Notes: a model not told the origin generated them from the letters alone. A stretch of DNA of 64,000 bases from an uncultured Acidimicrobiia bacterium (GCA_963836205.1 CAWIIV010000020.1:32001-96000), one strand, 5' to 3'; positions 6,029-31,992 are shown, numbered from the stretch's first letter. Made by a program: numbers and translations.

Positions 6029-6146
6029 GGTCAGCCCCCTGTCCAGCCGGTGAAGGATTCGGGCGGAGCGATGCGAGCTGGTGACGGAGTCGGTCGCCAG
6101 GCGACGGAAAGTGCCACCGGTTGGGACTGGGCCTTGGCCTGGGCGC

Positions 6147-9307: not shown

Positions 9308-10729
9308 ATGCTCGACGAGGCCGTGGTCCAGCGGGTGCTGGGGGTGGCGCTGCGCACCGGTGGCGACTTCGCCGAGGTCTTCGCCGAGGACCGGCGGTCG
9401 TCGTCCGCCCGCCTCGACGACGGCAAGGTGGAAGAGCTCACATCCGGCCGTAGTCGTGGGGCCGGCATCCGGGTGGTGGTGGGCGACACCACTGGCTTCG
9501 CTCACACGTCCGACCTCAGCGAGTCCGGCCTCGCCGCCGCCGCCCAGGTGGCGTCGGCCGCAGCCCGGGGCGGTGGAGGCGGCGTGCGGGAGGTCGCGCT
9601 CACCCGATCCGAGCACGGACGCCGCCAGTCCGATGCCGAGATCCTGCCCCAGGACGTCCCCAAGGCCGACAAGGTCGAGCTCCTCCGTCGGGCCGACGAT
9701 GCCGCCCGGTCCGAGGGCAGCCGGTCCGAGGGCGGCCGCTCCGAGGGGGGCGGCGTCCGCCAGGTGGGCGTGTCCTACGGCGACAGCCGACGACGGATCA
9801 TGGTGGCCAACAGCGACGGCCTCCTGGCGGGCGACGACCAGGTGCGCACCCGGTTCATGGTCTCGGCCGTGGCGGCCGGCGACAGCGGCATGCAGACCGG
9901 CTACGAGGGCCCCGGCGGCACCGTCGGCTTCGAGTTCTACGACGGGGTCGACGTGGCCGAGGTGGCCCGCACCGCCGCCCGCCGGGCGCTCGACATGCTC
10001 AAGGCCCGACCCGCGCCGAGTGGACGACTGCCGGTCGTCTTGAAGCGGGGCGCCGGCGGCGTGCTGTTCCACGAGGCGTGCGGCCACGGCCTGGAGGCCG
10101 ACCTTGTCGGTCGCGATGCCTCCGTGTTCCGGGGCCAGGTGGGCACCATGGTCGCCAGTCCCCTCGTCACCCTGGTCGACGACGGCACCTACGCCAAGGA
10201 GTGGGGCACCTACGCCATCGACGACGAGGGCCACCCCGCCCGCCGCAACACCCTCATCGAGAACGGCCGGCTCACCGACTACATGTGGGACCTGCTGCGG
10301 GCCCGCAAGGAGGGCCGGGAGTCGTCGGGCAACGGCCGCCGCCAGAGCTACCAGCACCTGCCGATGGTGCGGATGACCAACACCTACGTGCTGGCCGGGG
10401 AGGACGATCCCGAGGAGATCATCCGCCAGACGCCGCACGGCATCTACTGCGTGCAGCTGGGCGGGGGGTCGGTCAACACCGCCACCGGCGACTTCGTGTT
10501 CGGGATGACCGAGGCCTACATGATCGAGAACGGCGAGGTCACCGAGCCTGTCCGGGCGGCCAACCTCATCGGCAACGGCCCCGACGTCCTCCGCTCGATC
10601 GACGCGGTGGGCAACGACTTCGACACCTGGGCCGGCACCTGCGGCAAGGACGGCCAGGGGGTGCCGGTGTCGGCCGGCCAGCCCACGCTGCGAGTCTCGG
10701 GCATGACCGTCGGCGGGACGGCCAAGTGA
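9308..10729 (+). CDS. tldD: TldD metalloprotease
   Basis: GGDFAEVFAE, FHEACGHGLEAD, PMVRMTNT, CGKDGQGVPV. Confidence 0.92.
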   Translation: MLDEAVVQRVLGVALRTGGDFAEVFAEDRRSSSARLDDGKVEELTSGRSRGAGIRVVVGDTTGFAHTSDLSESGLAAAAQVASAAARGGGGGVREVALTRSEHGRRQSDAEILPQDVPKADKVELLRRADDAARSEGSRSEGGRSEGGGVRQVGVSYGDSRRRIMVANSDGLLAGDDQVRTRFMVSAVAAGDSGMQTGYEGPGGTVGFEFYDGVDVAEVARTAARRALDMLKARPAPSGRLPVVLKRGAGGVLFHEACGHGLEADLVGRDASVFRGQVGTMVASPLVTLVDDGTYAKEWGTYAIDDEGHPARRNTLIENGRLTDYMWDLLRARKEGRESSGNGRRQSYQHLPMVRMTNTYVLAGEDDPEEIIRQTPHGIYCVQLGGGSVNTATGDFVFGMTEAYMIENGEVTEPVRAANLIGNGPDVLRSIDAVGNDFDTWAGTCGKDGQGVPVSAGQPTLRVSGMTVGGTAK

Positions 10730-12085
10730 CTGCGGCATCAGGTTCGGGACTGCTCGAACTGGCAGAGCGGGTGGTGGCCGGCGCCCGGCCGGGCGAGCAG
10801 GTGGAGGCCTACGTCGGCCGGTCGTCCCGAACCGAGGTCAAGATCTTCGACGGTAAGGTGGAGTCGCTGTCGTCGGCCGATACCGCCGGCATCGGCGTGC
10901 GGGTGGTGGTCGACGGCCGCCAGGGGTTCGCCTACGCCGGCTCGCTCGACGAGTCGGTCATGGCCGAGGTGCTGGCCGAGGCCCGCGACAACGCCTCCTT
11001 CGGCACGGTCGACGAGTTCCTCGGCCTGGTCGCGCCCGACGGGGTGGCCGCCGCCGACCTCGACCTGTTCCGGGAGGACCTGGCCGACTTCCCCACCGAC
11101 CGCAAGGTGCAGCTGGCCCTCGACGTCGACCGGGCCACCCGCTCCGCCGACTCCCGCATCCGGGGCCTGGAGAGCGCGGGCTACGGCGACTCGTCCTCCG
11201 GCGTCGGCCATCGCGTCCACCGAGGGCATCCGGGTCACCGGCCGGCGCACGAACTGCTCGGTGTGGGCCGAGGCCCTGGCCGGCGAGGGCACCGAGACCC
11301 AGACCGGTTACGGCTACTCCGTCGGCCGCAGCCCCGGCGACCTCGACCTGGCCAAGGCCGCCGAGCAGGCCGCCGACCGGGCCACCCGCCTGCTCGGCGC
11401 CCGCAAGCCCGCGTCCCGGCGGCTGACGGTGATCTTCGACCCCAAGGTCACGGCGTCGTTCCTGGGCGTGCTGTCGTCGACCCTGAGCGCCGAGTCCGCC
11501 ATCAAGGGCCGGTCGCTGTTCGCCGGCCGCGACGGCGAGGCGGTGGCGGTCGACCTCATCACCCTGGTCGACGACCCCACCGAGCCCGAGGCCTACGGCG
11601 CCTCCCGGTTCGACGCCGAGGGCCTGGCCAGCCGGCGCAACCTCCTGATCGACGGCGGGGTCCTGGCCGGGTTCCTGCACAACTCCTACACCGGCCGCCG
11701 CACCGGACGGGCGTCGAACGCGGCCGCGGTGCGGGGCGGCTACATGACCGGCCCCGGCGTCGGCAGCCGGGCGTTGACGCTGACGCCGGGCGACAAGTCG
11801 GCCGACGAGCTGCTGGCGGAAACCGGCGAGGGCCTGCTGGTGCAGTCGGTGAGCGGGCTGCACTCGGGCGTCAACCCCGTGAGCGGCGACTTCTCCGTGG
11901 GCGTCGAGGGGCTCATGGTGCGGGGCGGCGAGCGGGCCGAGCCGGTGCGGGAGGCCACCATCGCATCGACCCTCCAACGGATGCTGCACGACGTGGTGGC
12001 CGTCGGCGGCGACCGCGAGTGGCTGCCCGGCGGCGCCGCAGGCGTCACCCTCGTCATCCGCGACGTCACCCTGAGCGGGTCGTAG
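10726..12085 (+). CDS. tldE: TldE/PmbA protein, frameshift near 11200
   Basis: GIGVRVVVDGRQGFAY in one frame; FDAEG, GVNPVSGDFS in ORF 11261..12085; GTG start overlaps the tldD stop. Confidence 0.85.
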
Positions 12086-12924: not shown

Positions 12925-13794
12925 GTGCTCCTCGCCGCCTCGCCAGACACCATCCCCGTCCTCCATGCCATCGTGCTCGGGATCGTGCAGGGGCTGTCGG
13001 AGTTCCTCCCCATCTCGTCCAGCGGGCACCTCATCCTCGTCCCCTGGTTGTTCGGCTGGACGGAGCTGACCGGCTCGGCCAACGCCGACTTCAACCGCAC
13101 CTTCGACGTGGCCCTGCACCTGGGAACCTTCGTGGGAGCGGCGGCCTACTTCCGGGCCGACCTGGTGCGGTTGGCGGGCGCGGCGTGGACGTCGCTGCGG
13201 ACCCGCCGGGTGGACGGGCCCGACCAGCGGATGGCGTGGCTGCTGGCCCTGTCGGCCCTCCCTGGGGCGACCGTCGGCGCTGTGCTGGAGACGACCATCG
13301 GCGACTCGCTCGGCAGCCAGATCTGGCTCATCGCGGTGTTGCTGATCGTGTTCGGGCTGGTCCTGCTGGTGGCCGACCGTCTGCCCGGGGACCGGGGCGA
13401 GCAAGAGTTCGGTTTTCGGGACGCGGCCGTGATGGGGCTGTGCCAGGCCGGGGCCCTCGTGCCGGGCGTGTCGCGGTCGGGGATCACCATCACGTCGGGG
13501 CGCTTCCTCGGCTTCCAACGGGACGCCGCCGCCCGCCTCTCCTTCCTCATGAGCCTGCCCATCATCGCCGGTGCCGGCCTCTATCAAGGGGCCAAGGTGG
13601 TCGCCGGTGGCGGCTTGCCCGCGGGGTCGCTGCCCGCCTTCGCCTGGGGGATGCTGGCGTCGGGAGTCACGGGCGCGCTGGCGGTGTGGCTGGTGCTGCG
13701 GGTGGTGCGGACGCAGTCGTTCGCCCCCTTCGTCATCTACCGGGTGATGGCGGGCCTGGTGGTGCTGGGCCTGCTGGCGACGAACTTCCGCTGA
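12925..13794 (+). CDS. uppP: Undecaprenyl-diphosphate phosphatase
   Basis: GIVQGLSEFLPISSSGH, PGVSRSGIT, FVIYR. Confidence 0.93.
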   Translation: MLLAASPDTIPVLHAIVLGIVQGLSEFLPISSSGHLILVPWLFGWTELTGSANADFNRTFDVALHLGTFVGAAAYFRADLVRLAGAAWTSLRTRRVDGPDQRMAWLLALSALPGATVGAVLETTIGDSLGSQIWLIAVLLIVFGLVLLVADRLPGDRGEQEFGFRDAAVMGLCQAGALVPGVSRSGITITSGRFLGFQRDAAARLSFLMSLPIIAGAGLYQGAKVVAGGGLPAGSLPAFAWGMLASGVTGALAVWLVLRVVRTQSFAPFVIYRVMAGLVVLGLLATNFR

Positions 13795-14434
13795 CGCCCG
13801 GGTCGGGGGCCTCGGGCGCGGCCAACGCCAGGGTGACAACCCCGCTGGCCAGGGCGAACGCGACCCGGGCGGCTTCGTCAGGGGACACCGCCACCGCCGC
13901 CGACTCGTCCCCCACGTCGACCACGACCGCGTCGGTGGCCACGGGGAACGTGGGCGGGGTGCCCTCGGCCGCGTCGGCCAGGTCGAAGGTGGCGAGCACG
14001 TCGACCGCGTCGCCCCGGACGAGAGCGAGGCTGGGCCGGGCGTTGGGCACCGCCACCGCCCGGCTCCCCGGCGGAAGGAGGGCGGCGAGCCCCCGCCGGC
14101 CGTCGGGCGCGAGCTGGCCGGCCACGATGGGCAGCCCTGGAAACACGGGGGCGACGACGGTGCGCCCTCGGGCGTCGTCGGGGGACATAAGCGCCCCGTC
14201 GGCCACCAGGGAGGCGGGGACGAGTCGGACGGACACGTCGTCGTCGCCAACCACCGAGCCCGGCTCGAGGGCGTGCACCGCCACCACCACCGGCCGGAGC
14301 GGCCCGTACTGGGCGGCGAGGGCGCCGGCGTTGCCCACGATCCGCGCCGCCACCATCCCGGTGAACAAGGCGAGCACGCCGACGACCAGCCAATAGGCAA
14401 TCGGAGAACGGGTGATACGAACGGACCGCCACAC
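13733..14434 (-). CDS. SAF-domain / CpaB-like protein
   Basis: GAGGAGG RBS before GTG; TM helix, VVVAVHALEPGSVV (SAF), RAVAVP...GDAVDVL. Confidence 0.7.
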   Translation of the reverse strand: MWRSVRITRSPIAYWLVVGVLALFTGMVAARIVGNAGALAAQYGPLRPVVVAVHALEPGSVVGDDDVSVRLVPASLVADGALMSPDDARGRTVVAPVFPGLPIVAGQLAPDGRRGLAALLPPGSRAVAVPNARPSLALVRGDAVDVLATFDLADAAEGTPPTFPVATDAVVVDVGDESAAVAVSPDEAARVAFALASGVVTLALAAPEAPDPGVSGSSSPAGPAPPGPPSPGR

Positions 14435-14766
14435 GGCCAACCTCCTCGACGGAACCCAAACGGGAGGAGGAAGTGGCGCCGAGAATATCGCGGCCGAGGG
14501 GGCGGGGGGGCCGGGCCCGGCGGCGGTGGCGGGGGGCGGCGCGGCTCGGCAGCGGGTAGCGGCGTGGTCGGCGAAGCGGAGTGGCTCGGCGGGGTGGCGG
14601 CGGGTGGCCGGGTGGCGGGGTGGCAAGAGATTAAGGGCATGCGTCGGCTGCTCCGGCGCACGATCTCCCGTCGCCCGCCGCGATCACCGAGCGAGCCAGT
14701 CTTGGACGAGCGCGAAACCTCATCGTCGCCACCATCGGCCGCGCCGGAGTCAAGCTTGCCACCGCG

Positions 14767-16658: not shown

Positions 16659-18071
16659 CCCTCTTCGCGAAAGCTGGTGACGGCCTCTCGTGAAGGGGCG
16701 CCGGTGCCGTAGCCGGTATCCACCATCTGGGCCACCGGGCCTCCTGAACTGGTCAGTGACGAAGCTGATCGAACAAGGAGGCCTGGTGGCTGCCCTCGAC
16801 GCTATGACGATCCGCCTGCACCTGCGCGCGGTGCGTGTACTGGAGGTGGTGGAGGACCTGCCCGAGTCCCTGGTGGTGGCGGTGGTGGCCATCGCCAACG
16901 TGATCCGCTGCTCGGCCTGCGGGCACAAGACGGCCCGGGTGCATGCCACCCGCAAGGTCCGCATCGCCGACCTGGCCGTGTCGGGACGGCCCGTCACCCT
17001 GGTCTGGCACCGCCGCCGGTTCCGGTGCAAGAACTGTCGCACGACGACGACGGAGAGCCATCCGTTCTTCGTCGACCGCATGACCAGGCGACTGGCCCGG
17101 GCGGTGGTGGCCGACGCCAAGGACATGACCGTTTCCGCCGTGGCCCGCCGCCACGGACTGTCCTGGCACCGGGTGATGCGCCTGGTGCTGGCCGAGGGCG
17201 AGCTGCTGGCCCGGGCTCGACGGCGTCGTCCGTGCCGGGTGCTGCTGGTCGACGAGAAGTCGATGCGCAAGGGCCGGGGCCAGTTCTCCACCATCCTCAC
17301 CGACGGCGACCGGGGCGCCGTCATCGCCGTGCTCAAGGGCCGCTCGGCGGATGTGCTGGGGGGCTTCCTCGCAGCTCAGAGCCCATCTTGGCGAGGGGGC
17401 GTGTCGGTGGTGGTGACCGACATGGCCGAGTGCTACCGGGTTGCGGTGCGCAAGCACCTGCCCCACGCCCGCCACGTGGCGGATCGGTTCCATGTCGTGC
17501 GCGGCTTCGCCAAGGTGCTGGTCAGCGCCCGCCGGGACGCCCAGCGCAGCCCCCTCGGCCAGCCGCATGACGCCGAGGTGTTCCGGGCCCGGTTCCTGCT
17601 GATGAAGCGGCTCGACCGACTCAGCGGCGAGGAGATGGCCCGCCTGGGCGCACTCTTCGACGCCCATCCCGAGCTCGGCGTGGTGTGGGGCCTGGTGCAG
17701 AGATTTCACGTCGTGTTCTGCGCCGAGAACGACGCCGACGCCGAGCAAGCGCTGGACTGGTTCACCGACGCCTACCTGGCCGCGGGAATCAACCTGGGAT
17801 CGGCCATCACCACGTTCTGCCGCTGGGGGGTCGAGGCGCTCAACTTCCACAAGACCGACCGGGCCACCAACGGAGCCTCGGAGGGGGTGAACACCCGCAT
17901 CGAGGTGCTGGAGCGAATGGCGTACGGGTTCGCCTCCAGAGCCAACTACCGAGCCCGGGTGCTTCTGTTCTGCTCCGGTCACCCGCCAGCGCTGGCGAGC
18001 TGAGGCCGGGATCGCCGATGATGACGGGGAAGCCATTCAGGCGGCGCGATCACCAGGTTTCGCGAAGAACC
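16659..18071 (+). mobile_element. ISL3-family insertion sequence (~1.41 kb)
   Basis: Imperfect 22-bp terminal IRs (CCCTCTTCGCGAAAGCTGGTGA / TCACCAGGTTTCGCGAAGAACC); 8-bp TSD GATTTTCC at 16651-16658 and 18072-18079. Confidence 0.92.
16786..18003 (+). CDS. ISL3-family transposase
   Basis: AAGGAGG RBS; zinc finger CSAC..CKNC; VDE, TDM, DRFH, TNGASEGVN...AYGF. Confidence 0.93.
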   Translation: MAALDAMTIRLHLRAVRVLEVVEDLPESLVVAVVAIANVIRCSACGHKTARVHATRKVRIADLAVSGRPVTLVWHRRRFRCKNCRTTTTESHPFFVDRMTRRLARAVVADAKDMTVSAVARRHGLSWHRVMRLVLAEGELLARARRRRPCRVLLVDEKSMRKGRGQFSTILTDGDRGAVIAVLKGRSADVLGGFLAAQSPSWRGGVSVVVTDMAECYRVAVRKHLPHARHVADRFHVVRGFAKVLVSARRDAQRSPLGQPHDAEVFRARFLLMKRLDRLSGEEMARLGALFDAHPELGVVWGLVQRFHVVFCAENDADAEQALDWFTDAYLAAGINLGSAITTFCRWGVEALNFHKTDRATNGASEGVNTRIEVLERMAYGFASRANYRARVLLFCSGHPPALAS

Positions 18072-18518
18072 GATTTTCCGCACCGCGCCGATGACGTCAT
18101 CCGGGGGGAGCAGCGTCGAGCTCGTCCAGTGGAGGTCGTCCTGGGTCAACGTCCGGGAGGCGACGTACTTGGGAATCTCGTTCATACGATCGGCGAAAGG
18201 ATCTCCCGCTCGGCGCGGCCACGCGGCCGCCATCGTCTGCCAGGTGCGGCGGCCGAACAGCAGCGCGACGGTGCCGTCCATCACCTCCTGCAGCACCGGA
18301 CCCATCGTCTCCGCCTCGAAGAACCGCATCGACCAGCCACCGTGGGCGAACCCGCCGTCGGGGTCCTCCTTGCGGCCTCCGGGCGCCTGCACGACCCCGT
18401 CGAGGCTCATGAAGTCACTGAGGATGATGCGCATGTCACTCCTTGCCCGTCGTGGTGACTACCTGCACCGGATCAGCGCCCCGAACTCATCGCCGTTCCC
18501 GTTGGCTCGCCCGGCGCT

Positions 18519-19363
18519 TCAGGCTTCGGCGGCCGGCGGACCGGGCTCGTCGCCGGGCGGGGCCGGCTCGGCCGCCGGCGGGAAGGGCTCGTCGCCGGGA
18601 GGGGCCGCGGCCCTCTCGGCGTCCACCACCGTCTCGACGCCCGCCGCGGTCGTGGCGTCCGTGGCCGTCGTGGTTGCCGCCGCCTCGGTGTCCGCCGCCG
18701 TGGCACCCGCCGCCTTCTTGGCGACCGGTGCCTTCTTCGCCACAGCCGCCTTTTGACCGCCGCCTTCTTGACCGCCGCCTTCTTGACCGCCGCCTTCTTG
18801 ACCGCCGCCTTTGTGGCCGCCGGCGCCTTGCTCACCGCGGCCGCCTTCTTCCCCGCCGGCGCCTTCGCCACGGCCGTCCGAGCGGCAGGCGCCCGCTTTA
18901 CCGGCGGCGCCTCCTCGGCCGTCGACATCTCCGCGGGAGCGTCCTCGACGACCGGCGGAGCGTCCTCGGCATAGGACGGCGCTTCCTCGGCCACGGGCGG
19001 GGCCTCGTCGACGACCGGCGGCGCCTCCTCAGCCATGGGCGGCGTCTCCTCGATCACGGGCGGAGCCGCCTCGGCCATCGGGGGCGGCGGCTCGTCCGGC
19101 CTCCCGCCCGGGAGGTGGACGACCTTTTCGACCCTCTCGACGACCTTGGAGACCGCCTTCTTGGCCGCCCCCTTCTTGGAGGACGCCTGCTTGCCCGCCT
19201 TCTTGGCCGCCTCGACCACGCCGAACTTGGGCCAGGAGACCTGCTCGCCCTTCTTGGCCGCCTTCTTGGCGGTGTCGAAGAAGGCGTCGAGGACCTTCTC
19301 CGCCTCCCGCCTGGCGACTCCGGCTCCCTTGGCCACCTGCTTCACCAACTCGGACTTCTTCAT
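18519..19363 (-). CDS. HU-like N-terminal domain plus Pro/Glu-rich and AAVKK histone-like repeats; frameshift near 18755
   Basis: [11 protein letters not shown]...EKVLDAFFD...[10 protein letters not shown] is the HU N-terminal body; 15-bp AAVKK repeats at 18745-18812. Confidence 0.75.
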
Positions 19364-22885: not shown

Positions 22886-24121
22886 ATGGTCATGAACTGT
22901 TCGAGGCGGCGTACGTCCATCCGGATCGGCATCGTCGTGGCCGCGGTGATCGCGCTCGGTGGTGTGTCTGTCCCACCCGTGACCGCGGCCGCGGCCACCC
23001 AGGTCGTGCTCACCGACGTCACGACGGCGCTCAACGTCGGCGACGTCGACAACCTGTTCGTGGCCCTGCGCGACGGCACCAATGCCAACGACACCGGCTA
23101 CGTGGGCACGGTCACGTTCGTCGCCGACTGCGGGGAGTGCTTCACGATCACGCCCAACAACGGGGGCGGATCGACCCGGGCGTACACGTTCGTGCCCGCC
23201 GACGGCGGCCAGAAGGCGATGGCCCTCACCTGGACCGAAGCCGGCACCCACCTCCTGGCGGTGGCCGCCACCCTCACCGGCGACACGGTCGACACCGACA
23301 GCGTGCCCGGCATCGTCGTGGGGCCGATGCCGACGACCACAACCTCCACCACCTCGTCGACCACCACCACCTCGACCTCCTCCACCTCAACGACGAGCAC
23401 CTCCACGACCACGACCACCACCACCACGACCGTCCCGCCCGCGGGGGCCAACCAGGCCCGGCCCCTCGTGGTGCGGGCCGACACCTGGTACCTGCGCAAC
23501 AGCCAGACCACGGGAAACGCCGACACCGTCTTCGTCTACGGCAACCCCACGGGCGACATCCCCGTCACCGGCGACTGGGACGGCAACGGCTCCGTCACCC
23601 CGGGCATGGTTCGGGGCGACTCGTGGTTCCTGCGCAACGCCAACTCGACGGGTACGGCCGACGCCTCCTTCCTCTACGGCGACCCGGGCGACACGCCCGT
23701 CGTCGGCGACTGGGACGGCAACGGGACGGTGACCGCGGGCGTGGTCCGTGCCGGGACCTGGTACCTGCGCAATTCGAACACCCAGGGCGTGGCCGATCTC
23801 AGCTTTGTCTACGGGAACCCGGGCGACATCCCGGTGGCAGGCGACTGGGACACGACCAAGTCGACCACACCTGGTGTGGTGCGCAACGGCGTGTGGTTCA
23901 TCCGCAATTCGAATACCCAGGGCACGGCCGACGGCAGCTACGGCTACGGCAACGCGGGCGACAAACCGCTGGCCGGCGATTGGGACGGCATCGGGACGAT
24001 GACACCCGGCGTGGTGCGGGGCAGCTCGTGGTTCCTCCGCAACGGCAACACCACCGGCGTCGCCGACGTGACCTTCACCTACGGCAACCCCACCGACACG
24101 CCCCTCCTCTGGCGGCCGTAA
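22886..24121 (+). CDS. Secreted protein with Thr-rich linker and GDWDG (FG-GAP-like) propeller repeats
   Basis: Signal peptide; poly-Thr; five ~40-aa repeats WYLRN...YGNPGDxPVxGDWDG. Confidence 0.85.
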   Translation: MVMNCSRRRTSIRIGIVVAAVIALGGVSVPPVTAAAATQVVLTDVTTALNVGDVDNLFVALRDGTNANDTGYVGTVTFVADCGECFTITPNNGGGSTRAYTFVPADGGQKAMALTWTEAGTHLLAVAATLTGDTVDTDSVPGIVVGPMPTTTTSTTSSTTTTSTSSTSTTSTSTTTTTTTTTVPPAGANQARPLVVRADTWYLRNSQTTGNADTVFVYGNPTGDIPVTGDWDGNGSVTPGMVRGDSWFLRNANSTGTADASFLYGDPGDTPVVGDWDGNGTVTAGVVRAGTWYLRNSNTQGVADLSFVYGNPGDIPVAGDWDTTKSTTPGVVRNGVWFIRNSNTQGTADGSYGYGNAGDKPLAGDWDGIGTMTPGVVRGSSWFLRNGNTTGVADVTFTYGNPTDTPLLWRP

Positions 24122-24402
24122 CGCCCCTGGCGACGCCGGGTCGGTGCCCAGGCGGAGGTGGATCCAGGGCGGGAGCTCGCTGGTGGCTGCGGCCGGGCAG
24201 GCGCCGGTCGCGCTCGCCCGGGAGTCGACCAGGGCGGCGTCGGCGGTGACTGCCCCGGCGTAGCCCACCGGCGGGTAGAAGTAGGCCTCGGCCCGGGGGT
24301 ATGCGGCGCAGGTGCCTGCGGTGGGGCCGAACCAGATGGACTGGGTGATGGTCGCGGCCACCCGATCTTGCCGCGTCCGCCGCCGACTGCATGACAGTTC
24401 GG

Positions 24403-26679
24403 TCAGTTGTTGAGCAGGTGGGCCGTCGCCCGGCGGCCGGGGAGCTTGACGACCTCGATGGCGTTGGGGAGCTGTTCCTTGATGGCGTTGTCGTGGGTGA
24501 CGACGAGGACCTGGCGGAATCGGTTCTTCAACCGCTCCAGGGCGAGCAGCATCCGCTCCTTGCGCTCGTCGTCGAGGGGGCCGAAGACCTCGTCGAGGAC
24601 GAGCAGCCCGACCGCCCCGCCGGCCTGGAACTGGACCTGCTCGCTCACCGCCACCCGGAGGGCGAGGTTGGCCAGGTCGGTCTCCGAGCCCGAAAAACGG
24701 GTCATCCCGTAGAGGAGCCCGGCGTCGCGCAGTTGGATCTCGTAGGTCTCCGGGTTGACGATGAGCTCGTCGTACTCGTGGTCGGTGAGCTCGGCGAACA
24801 GCGCCCCCGCCTTCTCCGACAGCCGGGGCCCCACCGACGCCACCAGCTCGTTGCGGAAGGCGTTGAGCAGGTCGGCCAGGCGGGCCAGGTGGCGGGCGTC
24901 GTCGCCCAGGCCCGCCAGCCGCTCGTGCTGTTCGAGGGCCTCGGCCAGCCGACGGCCCTCGGCGTCGGCCTTGGCCCGGGCCTGGACGGCCGCCACCCGG
25001 GCGTGGCCGGCGGCGAGGGCGGCCTCGTCGGCGACGGCCCGCTGCCGATCGCGCACCGCGACCGCCTGGGCCACGTCGTCGGGCCGGTAGTCGAGGCCCT
25101 TGGCCTTGGCCCGCAGGTTGTCGAGCCGGCCCTTGCTCTCGTCGGCCGCGGCCCGCTCCACGTCGAGCTCGGCCTTGGCCGTCACCCGCCGTTCGAGGCG
25201 CCCGGCGATGCGTTGGCACTCGTCGGCCGCCTGGCGCCGGCGGTCGACCTCGGCCGCCAGCCGGGCCACCTCCCCCTCCTCGACCGGCTCGCCGTGGGCG
25301 GCCTCGGCCCGGGCCAGGGCCGACTCCGCCTCCGCCCGGCGGGCCCGGGTGGCCTCGTACGCCTTCCACGCATCGCGGGCCAGCTTGAGGTCGATGAGTA
25401 GGGCATTTGCCGCCTCGGCGGCGACGCTGGCCGCGAACCCGGCCCGCCGCCGGTCGAGCTCGGCCTCCACCAGGGCCCCCTCCGCCACCGCCAGCTCGGC
25501 CGCTCGGTGCGCCTGCACCGACTCGAAGGCGTCGCCCAGGGCCTGGCCGCAGAGCGGGCAATCGGCCTCGCCGGTGAGCTCGCCCGAGCGATCGACCGCG
25601 GCCGCGGCCCGCTCCCTCGTGGCGCGGGCCGCGTCGAGCACGGCCTGCACCCGGGACACCTCGGTGCGGGCCACGTCGAGCTCGGCCCGGGCCGCCTCGT
25701 AGCCCTCCTCGTCGGGCGGGGGTGGGTCCTCCGCCGGCGGCAGGTTGGCGACCGCGGCCCGAGCCGCGACCACCGCCTCCACCCGCCGCAGGCGAGCCTC
25801 GGCGTCGCGCCAGCCCTCGGCCTCGGCCTGGAGCGACGCCAGGCGGTTGGCAGCCGCCTCCAGCGCAGCCAGCTCGTCGGCCAGCTTGGCTGCCCCGGCC
25901 AGGGCCCGCTCGAACTCCGCCCGCACCGCCCGCCCCTCGGCCACCAGCTTGTCGTGCTCCTGGCGGACGCCCTCCAGCCGGTCGGCGCTGCGGTGGGCGG
26001 CCTCGAAGTGGACCCGTGCCGTCTCCAGGGCGGTGTCGAGCTCGGACGCCTTCCACTCCAGGGCGGTGGCCATCGACACCGCCTCCTGCAGCTCGGCCTT
26101 GACCCGGCTGAGGTCGGGGAGCATGTCGCGCAGGCGCTCGAACGTGGTGGTGGCCGACCGGGCGTCCTTGCGGGCCAGGTCGCGCGCGCCGTCGAGGGGC
26201 GTGATCCCCAGGAGCTGGAGGACGAGCTTGCGGCGCTCGCTCGGCGGCTGGTCGCTGAAGGCGGCGAGTTGCTTCTGCTCGGCGAAGACGGAGGCCCGGA
26301 AGGCGGCGTCGTCCATTCCCAGGATCGAGTGGACATAGCGGGCGGTGTCGCGGACGCCCTCGGCCACCTGCATCCCGTCGGCGTGGGCCTGGGCCTTCAC
26401 CGTCGAGCCGGCCCCCGCGATCGTGCGCCGGACCAGGTAGAGGTGGCCCTCGTGCTCGAACTCGACCTCGCTGACGCACTCCGACCTGAGGCCGGCGGTG
26501 CGGATCTCGTCGATCGAGGTGCGGGAGCGGCCGAAGAGCGTCCACCGGATCGACTCGACGATCGTGCTCTTGCCCCCTCCGTTGGGCCCGTAGATGCCGA
26601 CCAGCCCCGGCGGGATCTCGAGGTCGAGCGGCTCCTCGTAGACCCGGTAGTTGCGCAGGTGGAGCCGGGTGATGCGCAT
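24403..26679 (-). CDS. rad50: Rad50/SbcC SMC-family ATPase
   Basis: Walker A GPNGGGKST, Q-loop AEQ, coiled coil with CPLC zinc hook, FSGSE signature, LLVLDEVFGPLD, VTH. Confidence 0.92.
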   Translation of the reverse strand: MRITRLHLRNYRVYEEPLDLEIPPGLVGIYGPNGGGKSTIVESIRWTLFGRSRTSIDEIRTAGLRSECVSEVEFEHEGHLYLVRRTIAGAGSTVKAQAHADGMQVAEGVRDTARYVHSILGMDDAAFRASVFAEQKQLAAFSDQPPSERRKLVLQLLGITPLDGARDLARKDARSATTTFERLRDMLPDLSRVKAELQEAVSMATALEWKASELDTALETARVHFEAAHRSADRLEGVRQEHDKLVAEGRAVRAEFERALAGAAKLADELAALEAAANRLASLQAEAEGWRDAEARLRRVEAVVAARAAVANLPPAEDPPPPDEEGYEAARAELDVARTEVSRVQAVLDAARATRERAAAAVDRSGELTGEADCPLCGQALGDAFESVQAHRAAELAVAEGALVEAELDRRRAGFAASVAAEAANALLIDLKLARDAWKAYEATRARRAEAESALARAEAAHGEPVEEGEVARLAAEVDRRRQAADECQRIAGRLERRVTAKAELDVERAAADESKGRLDNLRAKAKGLDYRPDDVAQAVAVRDRQRAVADEAALAAGHARVAAVQARAKADAEGRRLAEALEQHERLAGLGDDARHLARLADLLNAFRNELVASVGPRLSEKAGALFAELTDHEYDELIVNPETYEIQLRDAGLLYGMTRFSGSETDLANLALRVAVSEQVQFQAGGAVGLLVLDEVFGPLDDERKERMLLALERLKNRFRQVLVVTHDNAIKEQLPNAIEVVKLPGRRATAHLLNN

Positions 26680-26694
26680 GGTGGGCGGGCCCGC

Positions 26695-27813
26695 CTAGTC
26701 GGCCGCGGACTCGACGGCCCGGGCCAGGTAGTCGTCGCCCATGGTGCGGATGCGGTCGCGGTCGAAGCCGACCAGGTCCTGGCCCTGAACGTACTCGCCC
26801 CACTGGGCGGGCAGCGACTGGAGCTCGGGCAGCTGGGCGTGGCCCTCCGACTCCCGGAACCGGGGCTCCAGCTTCACCAGCAGGGCCTTGGCCGACGCCT
26901 CCCGCACCGCCTCCCGGTCGAGCAGGTGGAACGCCTCCGGCTCGACCTGTTCGAGGTAGAGGCGGGCGACCGCCCCGTTGGGCACCGCCGCCGCCCGTTC
27001 CAACACCGCCGCCTGGACCTCGGCCGGCGATAGCCCGAGGGCGTGCACGGAGGGGAGGGTGACCAGGGGCCGCTGGCCGGTGAGGGCGTGATGGGTGCAC
27101 ACGCCGGTGTCGGTGTCGAGGGTGACGATGCCCTTGGGCTCCTCGGGGCTGTCGGCGAAGGAGAACGTGTCGGTGGACCCGGCGTACCAGATCCCCTTAG
27201 CCACCTCGGTGTGGAAGTGGTAATGCCCGAGGAGGACGAGGTCGGCCTTCAGCTCGGACGCGTCGACCTCGATCTCGTTGATGTCGGCGTGCCGGGGCTC
27301 GACCTGGGGCACCCGGGGGTGGGTGAGCAGGAGGTTGGTGCGGTCGAGGCTGCGGTTGCGGTCGGCGTGGTGGAGGGCCTCGATGGTGTCGGCCACGGTG
27401 AGCATCTGGGGGACGGCGTGGATGGTGAGCCCGGCGAAGTCGAACCGCTCGTACTGGAGGCGGTGGGCGAACTTGACGTCGGTGAACGTGTCGGCCAGGG
27501 CCGAGTAGGGGCTGCCCGTGCCCGGCAGGCGGGGTGTGTCGTGGTTGCCGGTGATCACCACCAGGGGGACGCCGTGGGCCCGCACCCTCGACATGGCCCG
27601 CTGGGCGATGCGGAACGACCGGTAGGTGGGACGGGGATGGTCGAAGATGTCGCCCAGCCACACCACCAGGTCGGGCGCCTGGGCCAGGGCCAGCTCCACG
27701 GCCGCCTCGAACGACTGCTCGAAGTCACGCTCGCGCTGGTTGACCCCTTCGGGCGTGGTGAACGAGTAGTACGACCGCCCGAGGTGGGCGTCGCCCAGGG
27801 CCGCGATCTTCAC
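26695..27813 (-). CDS. mre11: Mre11/SbcD metallophosphoesterase nuclease
   Basis: DAHLG, GDIFD, GNHD, LGHYH, WYAGS motifs. Confidence 0.92.
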   Translation of the reverse strand: MKIAALGDAHLGRSYYSFTTPEGVNQRERDFEQSFEAAVELALAQAPDLVVWLGDIFDHPRPTYRSFRIAQRAMSRVRAHGVPLVVITGNHDTPRLPGTGSPYSALADTFTDVKFAHRLQYERFDFAGLTIHAVPQMLTVADTIEALHHADRNRSLDRTNLLLTHPRVPQVEPRHADINEIEVDASELKADLVLLGHYHFHTEVAKGIWYAGSTDTFSFADSPEEPKGIVTLDTDTGVCTHHALTGQRPLVTLPSVHALGLSPAEVQAAVLERAAAVPNGAVARLYLEQVEPEAFHLLDREAVREASAKALLVKLEPRFRESEGHAQLPELQSLPAQWGEYVQGQDLVGFDRDRIRTMGDDYLARAVESAAD

Positions 27814-27827
27814 GCCGCCCGCCCCCT

Positions 27828-27942
27828 CGAACTGGTGACGAAAGTGGTGGCCAGGGCAACCGAAAACGTCACCGGTTCGGGGTTGCGTCGCCAACAGGTG
27901 ACGATTTTGGTGGCCAGGGCAACCGAAAACGACACCGGTTCG
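27828..27942. repeat. Two tandem ~50-bp palindromic (REP-like) units between herA and mre11
   Basis: GAACTGGTGACG...CGTCACCGGTTCG and AACAGGTGACG...CGACACCGGTTCG sharing the core GGTGGCCAGGGCAACCGAAAAC. Confidence 0.85.
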
Positions 27943-27955
27943 AAGGTCGGGCGCA

Positions 27956-29530
27956 TCAGTCGACCAGGGCGGCGATGTTGGGTGGCACCACGGGGCGGGG
28001 GACGGGCGGGGGCGGGCAGTCGCGCACCACGTGCGACCACAGGTGGACCTTGGCCGGCACCGCGAAGGGGGCGTGGAGGTTGGCCACCAGGCACTCCCCC
28101 GGCATGAGCGTCTGGATCTCGGGCCCGAGGGCGGAGATGTCCTGCTTCGACGACGAGCGCAGGATGGTGCGGTCCTTCTCGTCGGCCAGGCCCAGGATGA
28201 AGAAGGTGTTGAACTGGCTCAGCAGCTCGCCGTCGAGGAGCTTGGGTTGCTGGGTGACGGCGCACAGCCCGACCTTGAACTTGCGCCCCTCCCGGGCCAC
28301 CCGGGGAAAGACGTTGGACTCCTTGTCCTTGTTGGCCGACAACACCCGCTGCGCCTCCTCCAGGACGATGGCCACCACCGGCAGCCGCTCGTGGACCTCG
28401 GGGTGGTCGAGGTAGGCGGCCGACCATTCGTCGAGCACCTTGCGGGCGAGGAACGAGGCGACCAGCACCTCCTCGGTGGACCCCAGGCCGCTCACGTCGA
28501 CCAGCACCACCTTGCCCTCACGCAGGTCGCGCAGCACCGCCGAGCCGACCGACACGTGAGCGTCGGCCGCGACGCACGGCAGCTCCACGATGCGCCGGGC
28601 CCGCCGGTGCACCACCTGCAGGGTGTTGAGGGCGACCCGCGAGTTCAGCTCCACGTCGCGGAATCCGGGGAGGTCCTCCACCGCCGAGAACTCGAGCATC
28701 CACGAGAGTCCCTCGCCGCCCGATCGGGAGTAGTGGCGCTCGAGCTCGAACAGGGCCTCCTCCTGGGGGCGGCTCCAGTCGTAGGCGGTGCGCAGGTCGT
28801 CGACGGTGAGCTCGCCCAGCCCCACCCGCAGGGTGGACGTGTTGGGCAGGCTGCGGGCGGCGTAGGTGCGCAGCCGCTCCCCCGCCCACGGGTGGCGGGC
28901 CAGCTGTGTGCGGTACTCGCCGTGGGGGTCGACCAGGAGCAGCCCGTATCGGCCCTGGGCCCGCATGACCCCGCCCGCCAGCACCATCATCAGGTTGGAC
29001 TTCCCCATGCCCGTAGTGGCGAAGATGCCGACGTGGGTGGCCAGGCTGTCGCCGGGGATGCCGACCTCGAAGTCGACGACGGTCTCGCCACTGCGCAGGT
29101 TGCCGACGGGCAGGTCGCCCATGCGGGTGCGGAGGAAGGCGAAGTCGGCCGGCTCCGGCGCCACCACCCTGGAGAACTGGGTGGGCAGGCTCTTGGGCTT
29201 GCGGAACTCGAGCCCGTCCGGGGTGAGGTAGCCCAGGCAGCGGCAGGTGGCGACGCGGTAGGTGCGGCGGGACTGCTCGTAGAGGCGATGGGCACCGTCG
29301 TCGCCCCGGTCGTCGTCGGCCAGGAGGGTGCCTGCCACCCGCTCGGCCCATCCCGGCTCCCGGTGCTCGCTGCCGTAGGTGACGTCGACGATGCGAAAGA
29401 GGTAGCGCCGCCCGGTGGCCTCGTCGACCGCCACCAGCAGCTCGCCCAGGAACAGGTCTTCGTCGGGCCCGGCCCGGAACACGCCCTCCAACACGTTCTT
29501 GCCGAACAGCCGGCCCCGTGAGTCACCCAT
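27956..29530 (-). CDS. herA: HerA-family helicase/translocase
   Basis: N-terminal HAS-barrel-like region; HVGIFATTGMGKSN, DPHGEY, IVLEEAQ, REGRKFKVGLCAVTQQP. Confidence 0.9.
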   Translation of the reverse strand: MGDSRGRLFGKNVLEGVFRAGPDEDLFLGELLVAVDEATGRRYLFRIVDVTYGSEHREPGWAERVAGTLLADDDRGDDGAHRLYEQSRRTYRVATCRCLGYLTPDGLEFRKPKSLPTQFSRVVAPEPADFAFLRTRMGDLPVGNLRSGETVVDFEVGIPGDSLATHVGIFATTGMGKSNLMMVLAGGVMRAQGRYGLLLVDPHGEYRTQLARHPWAGERLRTYAARSLPNTSTLRVGLGELTVDDLRTAYDWSRPQEEALFELERHYSRSGGEGLSWMLEFSAVEDLPGFRDVELNSRVALNTLQVVHRRARRIVELPCVAADAHVSVGSAVLRDLREGKVVLVDVSGLGSTEEVLVASFLARKVLDEWSAAYLDHPEVHERLPVVAIVLEEAQRVLSANKDKESNVFPRVAREGRKFKVGLCAVTQQPKLLDGELLSQFNTFFILGLADEKDRTILRSSSKQDISALGPEIQTLMPGECLVANLHAPFAVPAKVHLWSHVVRDCPPPPVPRPVVPPNIAALVD

Positions 29531-30502
29531 CTAGAACCGCTCCATGAGCCCGTGGCGGTCGGCGAAGGCCCGCTCCCGGACGTCGTGGGGCACGCCCACC
29601 CGGTCGAAGTGGCCCTCGACCTCGAGCCACGCCTCCTCCCGCAGCCAGCCCGGGCAGGCGGCCAGCCGGTCGGCGACGGTGAGCGGGTAGGGGTAGCCGG
29701 GAAAGGCGGCGTCGTCGGACAGGCCGGCGAGGGCGGACAGGACCGGCTCGGCGTCGACGTCGCCGGGCAGATCGACCCGGAAGGCGAAGCGGGCGTCGGG
29801 GTCGAGGCGCGCCGCCACCACCTGGATGCCGGCGTCGACGTCGGGCCGGGTGCGGGCGACCGGAGTCCACCACATGGCACGTGTACCGAGGAGGACTTCC
29901 GCCTCCAGCTCGAGCTGGCCCAGCAACGGCGCCCCACCCCGGGCCAACGACGATCGCTTGGTGACGCCCGCCAACGTGACCCCCGCGGCCCCGGCCCGTT
30001 CCAACAGCCCCTTGAGCCACGCCGACGGGATGCGCCAGTCGGGCACCAGGTCGCCGTCGACCAGCACCACCGCGCCCCGCTCGGCCTCGGCGATGCACTG
30101 CTCGACGGCCACCCACTCCTCGCGGTCGCGGAGGAGGTTGAGGTCGATCTTGGCGTCGAGGCGGATGTCGAGGCCGAGGTCGGCCGCCACCGCCCGCTCC
30201 TCGCCACAGCCGACCAGCCGGGCCTGGAGCTCGCCCTCGTACTCCACGCACTCCCCGTCGCGGAACCGCACCCGGGCGGCCCGGGTGACCACCAGCTGCA
30301 GGCAGCGGGCGTCGGCCACAAGGGCCTGGCCGCCGTCGACGGCCCACACCTCGTCGGGCGCCGCGGCCCGGGCGAGGGGCCGGGGCTCGATGTCGTAGGA
30401 GAAGGCGAGGTCGGTGCCGGTGGGGTCGCTCAGGACGCTCCCGCCACCGGTGAGCAGGACCGCCAGGCGCTCGGCGGCGACGGCCAGGGTTGCAGAGGAC
30501 AT
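29531..30502 (-). CDS. nurA: NurA-family nuclease
   Basis: WAVDGG, VLVDGDL, GVTKRS, FRVD, GYPYPL; stop codon abuts the herA ATG. Confidence 0.85.
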   Translation of the reverse strand: MSSATLAVAAERLAVLLTGGGSVLSDPTGTDLAFSYDIEPRPLARAAAPDEVWAVDGGQALVADARCLQLVVTRAARVRFRDGECVEYEGELQARLVGCGEERAVAADLGLDIRLDAKIDLNLLRDREEWVAVEQCIAEAERGAVVLVDGDLVPDWRIPSAWLKGLLERAGAAGVTLAGVTKRSSLARGGAPLLGQLELEAEVLLGTRAMWWTPVARTRPDVDAGIQVVAARLDPDARFAFRVDLPGDVDAEPVLSALAGLSDDAAFPGYPYPLTVADRLAACPGWLREEAWLEVEGHFDRVGVPHDVRERAFADRHGLMERF

Positions 30503-30533
30503 CGCCCACCAGCCTGCCAAGCCGGTGCGACAG

Positions 30534-30547
30534 TTACAAGCTTGTAA
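30534..30547. promoter_or_regulatory. Perfect 14-bp palindrome TTACAAGCTTGTAA, candidate operator of the nurA operon
   Basis: AT-rich dyad ~30 bp upstream of the nurA start; 11/14 copy at 30988-31001. Confidence 0.5.
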
Positions 30548-30560
30548 GTCCAGGCCCATC

Positions 30561-30610
30561 GAACCGGTGACAGATTGCGGGGTCCTGACCCCCAAAAACG
30601 TCACCGGTTG
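30561..30610. repeat. REP-like hairpin unit
   Basis: GAACCGGTGAC...GTCACCGGTTG immediately after the TfoX-gene stop. Confidence 0.8.
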
Positions 30611-30611
30611 A

Positions 30612-30974
30612 CTACTTCTTCCCCTTCTTCACCTTCGGCGGCAGAGCACCGATCAGCGCCAACGACGTGGCGATCCACGGCTCGGCCTCGGCCGGTGTCG
30701 CCCGCCAGGCCGACGGCAGGGTGACGTAGCCGCCCATGGGACGCTCCTCCGGCCCGAACGGTCCCCCGCCGTGCTCGGTCGTCAGCCGCTCCCGATCACC
30801 CTCGTCCAGCTTCACGCCCACGTCGGCGCCGAACAGGCCCATGAACATGTTCCCGTTCACGAACGCGCCCAGCTGGCCGAACATGGGCTTGACCTCGACG
30901 CGGGGATCGTCAGGAACCAGCGAGCGGAAGAACTCCTTGTCGTCCTCAGTCGGCTTGGGCATCTCCATTCCCAC
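30612..30974 (-). CDS. TfoX N-terminal domain protein
   Basis: KPMFGQLGAFVNGNMFMGL, RPMGGYV, LPPK. Confidence 0.88.
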   Translation of the reverse strand: MGMEMPKPTEDDKEFFRSLVPDDPRVEVKPMFGQLGAFVNGNMFMGLFGADVGVKLDEGDRERLTTEHGGGPFGPEERPMGGYVTLPSAWRATPAEAEPWIATSLALIGALPPKVKKGKK

Positions 30975-31020
30975 ATCGTGGCGCGAATTACAAGCACGTA
31001 GCCCGTAGGATCGCCGGGAG

Positions 31021-31992
31021 ATGCCCGAAACCCTCGAGCTTCCGCCCCGGCTCGACCTCCCCCTCTTCGCCTACGGACTGCTCAAGCCCGATCAGCCGGC
31101 CTACGGCGGTGTGGTCGCGCCGGTCGTGGCCGTCGCCTCGCCCGCCCGTCTCGACGGCGGCGGCCTGCGCTACCGCGACGGGTTGCCCGTCCTCGACCCC
31201 GAGGGCACGGCCGGCGTCGAGGGTGCCGTCCTCCGCTTCGCCCATGGCGAGGAGCGGGCCGCCTACGACGCCGTCTGCGGCTTCGAGCCCCGCCACCAGT
31301 ACCGGTGGTACATCACCGACGCCCGGGTGGGCGACGACAGGTCGGTGCGGGTCAACGTCCTCCAGGGTCGCCACCCGGAGCGGGGCGTGGCCGACGAGTG
31401 GTTCACGTCGTGGTCGGCCGACGCCGATCCCCTCCTCCGCTTCGGGCTCCACGCCGTCCGCCGGGCCGCGCTCGACCACGCGGTCACCGCCTTCCCCGCG
31501 CTGCCCGGCGACAGCGCTGCGCTCTGGAACCGCTTCTACGGGCTGCAGTCCTCCTACCTGCTCCTTTGGGCGGCGGTCGAGCGCTACGCCGCCATCGCCT
31601 GCTCCCCCGGCGACGAGCCCCTCACCCGGGTCTTCCGGCTGGGCGACGACCCGTCGTTCAAGGAAGCCGTGGTCGCGGCCGGAGTCGCCCCCCTGCCCAA
31701 GACCGCCGATGCCCGCGACCCGGGCCGGTCACGGCGCATCCGGGAGGACGGCACCGGCGCCATGTACGCCTGGGAGTCGGTGCGGGCCACGCTCGGGCAC
31801 CCCGGCCGCACCGCGTTCGTCGAGGGGACGCTGCTGCGGCGATCGCTGGTGGAGCTGCACGACACCCTCCGCCTCCTGCTCCTGACCCGCCTGCCGGGCG
31901 TGGCCGACACCTGGCGCGACGTCGACCCCGACGGTGCGGTCCACCAGTGGCTGCTCCGGCCGGTGGTGTCGCCGGACGGCCTGAGCCCGTGA
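31021..31992 (+). CDS. GGCT-like domain fused to a putative HEPN-like helical domain
   Basis: LFAYGLLKP (GGCT-like start); LQSSYLLLWAAVERY helix; RATLGH fits R-x4-H. Confidence 0.55.
   Translation: MPETLELPPRLDLPLFAYGLLKPDQPAYGGVVAPVVAVASPARLDGGGLRYRDGLPVLDPEGTAGVEGAVLRFAHGEERAAYDAVCGFEPRHQYRWYITDARVGDDRSVRVNVLQGRHPERGVADEWFTSWSADADPLLRFGLHAVRRAALDHAVTAFPALPGDSAALWNRFYGLQSSYLLLWAAVERYAAIACSPGDEPLTRVFRLGDDPSFKEAVVAAGVAPLPKTADARDPGRSRRIREDGTGAMYAWESVRATLGHPGRTAFVEGTLLRRSLVELHDTLRLLLLTRLPGVADTWRDVDPDGAVHQWLLRPVVSPDGLSP

Follow-up and report, generated by a model that had tools for sequence, protein, structure and literature searches.

End resection of DNA double-strand breaks in bacteria is usually described through RecBCD, AddAB, AdnAB and RecJ. 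In archaea such as Sulfolobus, Pyrococcus and Thermococcus, the genes for HerA, Mre11, Rad50 and NurA form a herA-mre11-rad50-nurA operon, and partial or similar arrangements have been described in bacteria. Operon-encoded NurA-HerA pairs in Deinococcus radiodurans and Thermus thermophilus have been implicated in end resection (PDB 7F6D; PMC9960219, PMC5448004). According to PMC5448004 (2017), the Thermus nurA-herA pair has no sbcD and sbcC genes after it, a difference from the cluster presented here, and Oceanithermus profundus carries sbcD and sbcC downstream of nurA-hepA, an architecture that the authors of that work liken to the archaeal system. Here we analyze a nurA-herA-mre11-rad50 cluster at positions 24403-30502 of a 64,000-nucleotide stretch of DNA (GCA_963836205.1, CAWIIV010000020.1:32001-96000; hereafter the window, along the whole of which all coordinates are counted) from the metagenome-assembled genome (MAG) of an uncultured soil actinobacterium of the Acidimicrobiia, whose close relatives are MAGs labeled Acidimicrobiia or Acidimicrobiales. 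The cluster is a real, complete and well-conserved representative of a known system and presents no new mechanism; some interest attaches to how it is distributed in evolution. All four genes lie on the minus strand, and their coordinates and key residues are as follows.

29531-30502, minus strand: nurA, 323 residues from its ATG, RNase H-like 5'-3' nuclease family, catalytic D56, E129, D149 and D278
27956-29530, minus strand: herA, 524 residues, FtsK/HerA-type hexameric translocase ATPase family
26695-27813, minus strand: mre11, 372 residues, GTG start, Mre11/SbcD-family phosphoesterase nuclease
24403-26679, minus strand: rad50, 758 residues, Rad50/SbcC-family ABC ATPase with coiled coil and central zinc hook
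29669-29671, minus strand: codon of NurA D278, the motif III position (His in many NurA proteins), located by alignment
28997-29020, minus strand: HerA Walker A, ATTGMGKS, located by motif search
25549-25560, minus strand: Rad50 zinc hook, CPLC, located by motif search

The four open reading frames (ORFs) are co-oriented, contain zero internal stops and carry Pfam and motif matches, which bears out the original prediction of four co-oriented genes with recognizable motifs and no frameshifts. For nurA we prefer the ATG at which homologues begin to the longer GTG-started ORF that extends to 30604, and the start of mre11 was placed at the GTG at 27813-27811 (VKIAALGDAHLG), the TTG of a 399-residue ORF not being taken. 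Two close junctions that had been predicted were confirmed on the sequence: the nurA TAG (29531-29533) immediately adjoins the herA ATG (29530), and 15 nucleotides separate the mre11 stop from the rad50 ATG. The spacer between herA and mre11 is about 142 nucleotides long and contains two copies of a genome-wide palindrome resembling repetitive extragenic palindromic (REP) elements, and the four genes are therefore better described as two tight pairs than as one seamless string. The view of the locus as one complete operon thus holds insofar as the four genes are adjacent and co-oriented, but is qualified by this gap. The G+C fraction of the cluster is 0.730, compared with 0.723 for the window and 0.714 for the genome.

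A hidden Markov model check of NurA had been proposed for the product of 29531-30502, and this product passes the Pfam NurA (PF09376) cut-off with 26.3 bits against 21, the aligned part being residues 266-315, the C-terminal 50 residues only; none of the NCBIfam models matched it. Because the Pfam match is weak, an AlphaFold model was built from a 25-row alignment, giving a predicted local distance difference test score of 89.8 and a predicted template-modeling score of 0.88. The best Foldseek match of this model is S. solfataricus NurA 2YGK (E 1e-11, TM 0.58), the top ranks contain 2YGK, 8WFD (TdpB, second), 9X1M, 3TAI and 7F6D, and the matches include the NurA proteins of T. kodakarensis, P. 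furiosus and D. radiodurans (7F6D, rank 9). On the strength of the model we are confident that the window NurA adopts the RNase H-like NurA fold. The metal-site motifs of NurA are given in PMC13748450 as motif I DG, motif II DG and motif III LxxAH. Across 52 aligned rows, D56 (in VDGG), E129 and D149 (in VDGD) are invariant wherever a row has a residue at the position, two rows being gapped at D56. The motif III region reads PLTVAD at residues 273-278 and 45 residues come after it, such that the GYPYPLTVAD with which NurA had been said to end is present but is not the end of the protein. The Asp-for-His variant that had been singled out in this motif is likewise real, but it is a normal alternative that also occurs in archaeal rows. 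Among the 17 Actinomycetota rows, position 278 is D in 8 and H in 9, the eight D rows being every row of the window's own clade (the window and its Acidimicrobiales relatives), and D is also found at the equivalent position in Thermoproteota, Nitrososphaerota, DPANN and some Thermoplasmatota rows. With D and H each occurring in both bacteria and archaea, this position therefore reflects normal DEDD/DEDH alternation and no peculiarity of the window protein, which is predicted to be a 5'-3' nuclease with a D-E-D-D metal site.

The other three proteins are similarly drawn toward archaeal relatives. HerA matches Pfam DUF87 (PF01935) with 71.7 bits and carries a Walker A at residues 171-178 that reads ATTGMGKS, as had been noted (with a following N), together with a Walker B, AIVLEE, at 387 and REGRK at 413. 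Its nearest solved structure in a PDB profile search is S. solfataricus HerA 4D2I (E 1.3e-35), and the nine PDB sequences that the HerA profile picks up at E ≤ 0.001 do not include D. radiodurans HerA, which places the window protein closer to its archaeal counterparts than to this bacterial one. Mre11 matches Pfam Metallophos (PF00149) with 45.9 bits, displays the motifs GDAH at 7, GDIF at 54, GNHD at 89, THP at 164 and GHYH at 196, and has M. jannaschii Mre11 3AUZ as its best PDB relative (E 8e-14), with bacterial SbcD at 2.8e-6 or worse. Rad50 matches SMC_N (66.3 bits), AAA_23 (61.8 bits) and SbcC_Walker_B (26.6 bits), with head-domain matches at both ends of the protein, and combines a Walker A at 31-38, a Q-loop AEQ at 133, the signature SGSE at 663, the Walker B LLVLDE at 692 and VLVVTH at 724 with a CPLC zinc hook at 374-377, the exact middle of its 758 residues; its best PDB relative is M. 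jannaschii Rad50 (E 3e-20), with E. coli SbcC at 6e-17. Archaeal Mre11 and Rad50 (M. jannaschii, P. furiosus) are thus matched better than bacterial SbcD and SbcC. The assignment of the locus as an archaeal-type quartet is upheld on this basis, with HerA nearest 4D2I, the NurA fold nearest 2YGK, and Mre11 and Rad50 nearer to the archaeal proteins.

This quartet is a stable feature of the window's relatives. All 24 genomes of the same family encode NurA (18 of 18 once six unpublished genomes are set aside). NurA also occurs in 7 of the 16 other families of the order, in one of these only weakly, and within the order as a whole it occurs in 32 of 41 genomes, the window's own genome counted. An even sample of the phylum yielded 38 of 401 genomes (with the window genome and one unpublished genome counted), and in other Actinomycetota families NurA was found in 21 of 21 genomes in one, 4 of 22 in one and 3 of 4 in one. 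The order nurA-herA-mre11-rad50 is seen in 7 of 8 same-genus loci, the remaining one ending at a contig edge; frame breaks occur in same-genus loci from some long-read MAGs. The same order is found at 10 of 12 family- and order-level loci, the other 2 being truncated by contig ends, and at 15 of 16 loci of nine other Actinomycetota families, where the other one is cut, and nurA is paired with herA in all 36 of these related loci. A species-level survey, in which the HerA profile found 80 species-representative genomes and 48 loci had enough flank, gave the quartet order in 47 of 48, the exception having only nurA-herA within 5 kb. At 12 related loci, NurA is 46-73% and HerA 62-89% identical to its counterpart in the window, and the HerA values point to strong purifying selection on this protein. 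These Actinomycetota counts contradict the claim in the literature that nurA has no stable synteny with its partners in bacteria. One locus of a related family (L022, G038:C17) shows the quartet split by about 1.2 kb between nurA and herA (10239-11458) and about 1.5 kb between herA and mre11 (13056-14532).

The cluster is therefore common in some lineages and vertical at the family and order level. The original prediction had held the locus up as a candidate undescribed system, while allowing that the four-gene arrangement might prove already common, characterized and vertically inherited in actinobacteria; commonness in some lineages and vertical descent within family and order were indeed found, but the actinobacterial cluster is uncharacterized. 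Full-text literature searching found no description of an actinobacterial four-gene operon, and older comparative work may contain notes on bacterial clusters. The system itself does not qualify as undescribed, since close homologues already bear the NCBI name 'DNA double-strand break repair nuclease NurA [Acidimicrobiales bacterium]', a 2021 review (PMC8708640) counts Actinobacteria among the groups with NurA/HerA homologues, and the Oceanithermus string is published.

Comparison with archaeal loci places the Actinomycetota quartet within a wider group. A profile search of 1.84 billion representatives returned 266 HerA relatives at E ≤ 1e-30, and labeled loci taken from two genome scans were scored against profiles built from the Actinomycetota versions of the four proteins. 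The bit scores fall into three groups, the ranges for the methanogens and for the third group being drawn only from genes uncut by contig ends and without frame breaks.

Thermoplasmatota: HerA 550-680, Mre11 314-355, Rad50 374-512, NurA 103-242 bits
Methanotrichales/Methanomicrobiales: HerA about 400, Mre11 about 260-300, Rad50 about 360-430, NurA about 115-175 bits
DPANN, Thermoproteota, Nitrososphaerota and others: HerA about 300, Mre11 about 30-75, Rad50 about 75-180, NurA about 85-120 bits

The ranking of the groups is consistent across all four genes. Methanotrichales loci (L174-L194) carry the full quartet in the window's own order, nurA-herA-mre11-rad50, and Methanomicrobiales loci (L195-L212) carry it in the order mre11-rad50-nurA-herA. 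Clustering of the four genes is therefore not limited to thermophilic archaea, as these methanogen MAGs possess it. Outside Actinomycetota, the bacterial quartet was confirmed in single Zixibacteria and Pseudomonadota MAG loci.

Phylogenetic trees, which were quick maximum-likelihood reconstructions (LG+G4) with Shimodaira-Hasegawa-like approximate likelihood ratio support only and with composition heterogeneity flagged, agree with this grouping. The HerA, Mre11 and concatenated trees each set apart at 100% support a 'group II' that comprises Actinomycetota, Thermoplasmatota, Methanotrichales and Methanomicrobiales together with single Zixibacteria, Pseudomonadota and unplaced bacterial MAG rows; all but four of the sampled Thermoplasmatota rows fall in it (13 of 17 in the HerA tree). 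With the other archaeal group as root, the two methanogen orders stand as sister to a mixed clade of Actinomycetota and Thermoplasmatota, which has 98% support. A single Actinomycetota clade was rejected by the approximately unbiased test (p 0.003), one actinobacterial row falling with Thermoplasmatota, a placement for which mis-binning or long-branch effects are possible explanations. In a MAG labeled only 'bacterium' (L154), herA-mre11-rad50 is nested in a Thermoplasmatota clade with 100% support, a placement explained either by transfer in recent times or by mis-binning of an archaeal contig. Judged by sequence, all four window proteins group with those of Thermoplasmatota, Methanotrichales and Methanomicrobiales, apart from the DPANN/Thermoproteota type, and we conclude that the four genes travel together and are common to both domains. 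The clade shared with euryarchaeal quartets makes inter-domain transfer at some depth likely, so that the suggestion of horizontal acquisition survives in this general sense, but not as a recent event, the cluster being family-wide and of normal G+C. We would go further only tentatively, and with somewhat more doubt than conviction: group II may be a distinct, mostly mesophilic lineage that has moved as a four-gene block between Euryarchaeota and bacteria more than once, and that in carrier Actinomycetota may have displaced native SbcCD, providing archaeal-type Mre11-Rad50-coupled resection beside AdnAB.

The repair repertoire of the carrier genomes bears on what such a module might do. The operon mre11 is the sole SbcD-family (TIGR00619) match in 5 of 5 carrier genomes, and of five genomes in this order that lack NurA, four have a different SbcD-like gene. 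With a single SbcD-family match per carrier genome, the Mre11-Rad50 complex of the module is thus the only one found in its hosts. SbcC-like matches in the window genome comprise the operon rad50 and a 31.9-bit N-terminal P-loop match in a 1782-residue frame on another contig. Scored with the clade Mre11 profile, the SbcD-like genes of NurA-less Acidimicrobiales reach 29-61 bits, as opposed to 256-355 bits for complete Mre11 of Thermoplasmatota and Methanotrichales. Two Ku genes lie outside the window (G000:C20:139669-140217 and G000:C24:152896-153438), one of them on the window's contig. The genome also encodes an AdnAB-like pair, two adjacent proteins that each combine a UvrD helicase with a PD-(D/E)XK domain, and the quartet does not stand in place of AdnAB.

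Taken together, the gene content, conserved linkage and repair context make housekeeping end resection of double-strand breaks, that is, recombinational end processing, the probable function of the cluster. We infer complex formation, biochemical activities and in vivo role from the characterized archaeal and Deinococcus complexes on which the following mechanism is modeled. Rad50 dimers, joined through their CPLC zinc hooks, and the Mre11 nuclease would recognize DNA ends, tether them and clean them. HerA, as a hexamer docked on dimeric NurA, would then translocate along the duplex at the expense of ATP, and the D-E-D-D metal site of NurA would degrade the 5' strand, leaving 3' tails for the loading of RecA. 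The module would work beside the AdnAB-like helicase-nuclease and Ku.

Several observations weigh against this assignment. NCBIfam models for the archaeal repair proteins are far from satisfied: HerA scores 88.6 against a cut-off of 800 for the equivalog NF040937 and 73.5 against 970 for NF040819, Mre11 scores 57.9 against 500 and 55.9 against 550 (and 52.6 against 77.65 for TIGR00619 SbcD), and Rad50 scores 129.6 against 847 for Rad50 and 123.3 against 478.5 for sbcc. By NCBI thresholds HerA, Mre11 and Rad50 are therefore distant relatives, not orthologues. The AdnAB-like resection enzyme is already there, so the module may be redundant or specialized. Neither RecC nor RecJ was found in the window genome, which is 88.6% complete, so that these two and a second SbcCD can be counted only as not found. 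A sigma-70 promoter scan of 24000-31200 returned 0 sites, and no LexA-type box (consensus GAAC-N4-GTTC) lies upstream of nurA; with up to one mismatch, the box has 24 matches in the window compared with 18.6 expected. Finally, a 2026 review states that bacterial NurA-HerA chiefly degrades foreign DNA.

This last view would make the cluster an anti-phage or anti-plasmid defense system of the HerA-plus-nuclease kind that destroys incoming linear DNA like TdpAB, Sir2-HerA and DUF4297-HerA, a role that had been raised at the outset and that we now regard as improbable. PADLOC assigns HerA to HerA models (best 81 bits) and mad8, and Rad50 to mad3 and LmuB models, but returns no match for NurA or Mre11, and the NCBIfam anti-phage HerA models are not reached (43.5 against 800 bits for NF042943, 33.9 against 850 for NF042944). 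TdpB of TdpAB, a system that reportedly acts in defense, is the sole sequence-level PDB match of the NurA profile (E 0.06) and is second by fold. The genomic setting is nonetheless that of a housekeeping locus: all 24 family genomes have the cluster, its gene order is fixed and its housekeeping flanks are conserved and stable, unlike in patchy defense islands, and it carries the only Mre11/SbcD found in the genome. A dual role in repair and defense, like that of RecBCD, is possible.

The neighborhood of the cluster brings in two further explanations. The neighbors include genes for a TfoX_N-domain protein, an M48 peptidase, a penicillin-binding transpeptidase, a HAD hydrolase, an HU-like protein and an ISL3 transposase, and no membrane or pilus genes lie in the cluster itself. 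Four of the flanking features are given here.

30612-30974, minus strand: TfoX_N-domain protein, 120 residues, 46.4 bits, immediately upstream of nurA and co-oriented with it
31021-31992, plus strand: divergent ORF, 323 residues, no Pfam match at E 1e-5
16690-18003, plus strand: intact-looking ISL3-family transposase with DDE_Tnp_ISL3, zinc-ribbon and helix-turn-helix domains, about 6.4 kb downstream of the cluster
18473-19363, minus strand: HU-like ORF, 296 residues (start predicted), of which the first 62 match the HU/IHF DNA-binding domain and the rest is unmatched

The co-oriented TfoX_N-domain gene directly upstream of nurA, the membership of HerA among the FtsK/HerA pumping ATPases and a weak NCBIfam match to CedD, an ATPase of archaeal DNA import (64.6 bits, cut-off 600), could point to another DNA transaction, either the removal of hairpins or protein adducts at replication forks, as in the SbcCD role, or HerA pumping for DNA uptake or transfer. 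We hold this to be unlikely, as the TfoX_N neighbor is confined to same-genus loci (6 of 8, against 0 of 28 more distant loci), the cluster is without membrane or pilus genes, and the linkage of HerA to the NurA nuclease and Mre11-Rad50 is a signature of end resection. In genus- and family-level relatives (L009-L017, L020, L023) a gene 47-89% identical to the divergent ORF at 31021-31992 stands beside nurA, and family-level relatives have the HAD hydrolase gene directly after rad50 and this conserved divergent gene before nurA; the penicillin-binding-protein gene and the transposase were inserted between rad50 and the HAD gene at the genus level. A recent island acquired from an archaeon, possibly as mobile-element cargo outside host physiology, is very improbable despite the archaeal affinity of all four proteins and the ISL3 transposase about 6.4 kb downstream, since the G+C equals that of the genome (0.730 versus 0.714), the cluster is conserved with identity falling through genus, family and order and is present in other Actinomycetota families, and the transposase is a genus-level insertion, the HAD gene lying directly after rad50 in family-level relatives.

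The REP-like palindrome noted in the herA-mre11 spacer follows the pattern AAC[CT]GGTGACG, about 26 nucleotides, CGTCACC[GA]GTT, and has 117 regular-expression matches in the 4.05-Mb genome, often as tandem arrays of 2-5 copies with a period of about 62 nucleotides. The copies at the cluster, located by regular expression and unstranded, are listed below.

27830-27877 and 27893-27940, no strand: REP-like palindrome of 48 nucleotides, two tandem copies in the herA-mre11 spacer
30562-30609, no strand: REP-like palindrome of 48 nucleotides, one copy shortly upstream of nurA

Elsewhere in the window the palindrome occurs at 6076-6122, 48351-48528 and 50448-50495. The distance between herA and mre11 is 3-60 nucleotides in most relatives, and the REP-like copies account for the unusually long spacer in the window genome. 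These inverted repeats were also considered as an operon-specific operator, a candidate that was rejected because they belong to the genome-wide element.

The broader value of the locus lies in its setting. In a large group of uncultured Actinomycetota, abundant in the environment, the complete archaeal-type machine is stably maintained and provides the only Mre11-Rad50 complex found. If end resection is indeed its function, the cluster would offer a mesophilic bacterial model for the coupling of HerA-NurA to Mre11-Rad50 and a clear example of two domains sharing a multi-protein repair machine en bloc, and the recent statement that nurA in bacteria is not in stable synteny with its partner genes would need correction.

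Among known systems, bacterial SbcCD (E. coli 6S6V, Staphylococcus 7DOG) shares the Mre11/Rad50 superfamily and the same nuclease and ATPase motifs, but is less similar, SbcD matching the window Mre11 at E 2.8e-6 and 2e-4 compared with 8e-14 for archaeal Mre11. TdpAB (PDB 8WET/8WFD) resembles the locus as a complex of a HerA-like and a NurA-like protein, with TdpA matching the window HerA profile at E 8e-19; it differs in having two genes and no Mre11-Rad50, and its similarity is far weaker than that of the window HerA to Sulfolobus HerA. The Deinococcus NurA-HerA pair is a further likeness, the D. radiodurans NurA fold matching the window NurA model at rank 9, and the Oceanithermus profundus string has bacterial nurA-herA followed by sbcD-sbcC, as in the window, in another phylum. 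The archaeal operon provides the fullest counterpart, with the same four families in one co-oriented cluster, and its motifs and zinc hook are intact here. The window cluster departs from it in its host, a mesophilic high-G+C bacterium, in its order, nurA-herA-mre11-rad50 (the Sulfolobus order being taken from names in papers), and, relative to the Thermoproteota/Nitrososphaerota/DPANN type, in the placement of its proteins in a separate clade with those of Thermoplasmatota, Methanotrichales and Methanomicrobiales.

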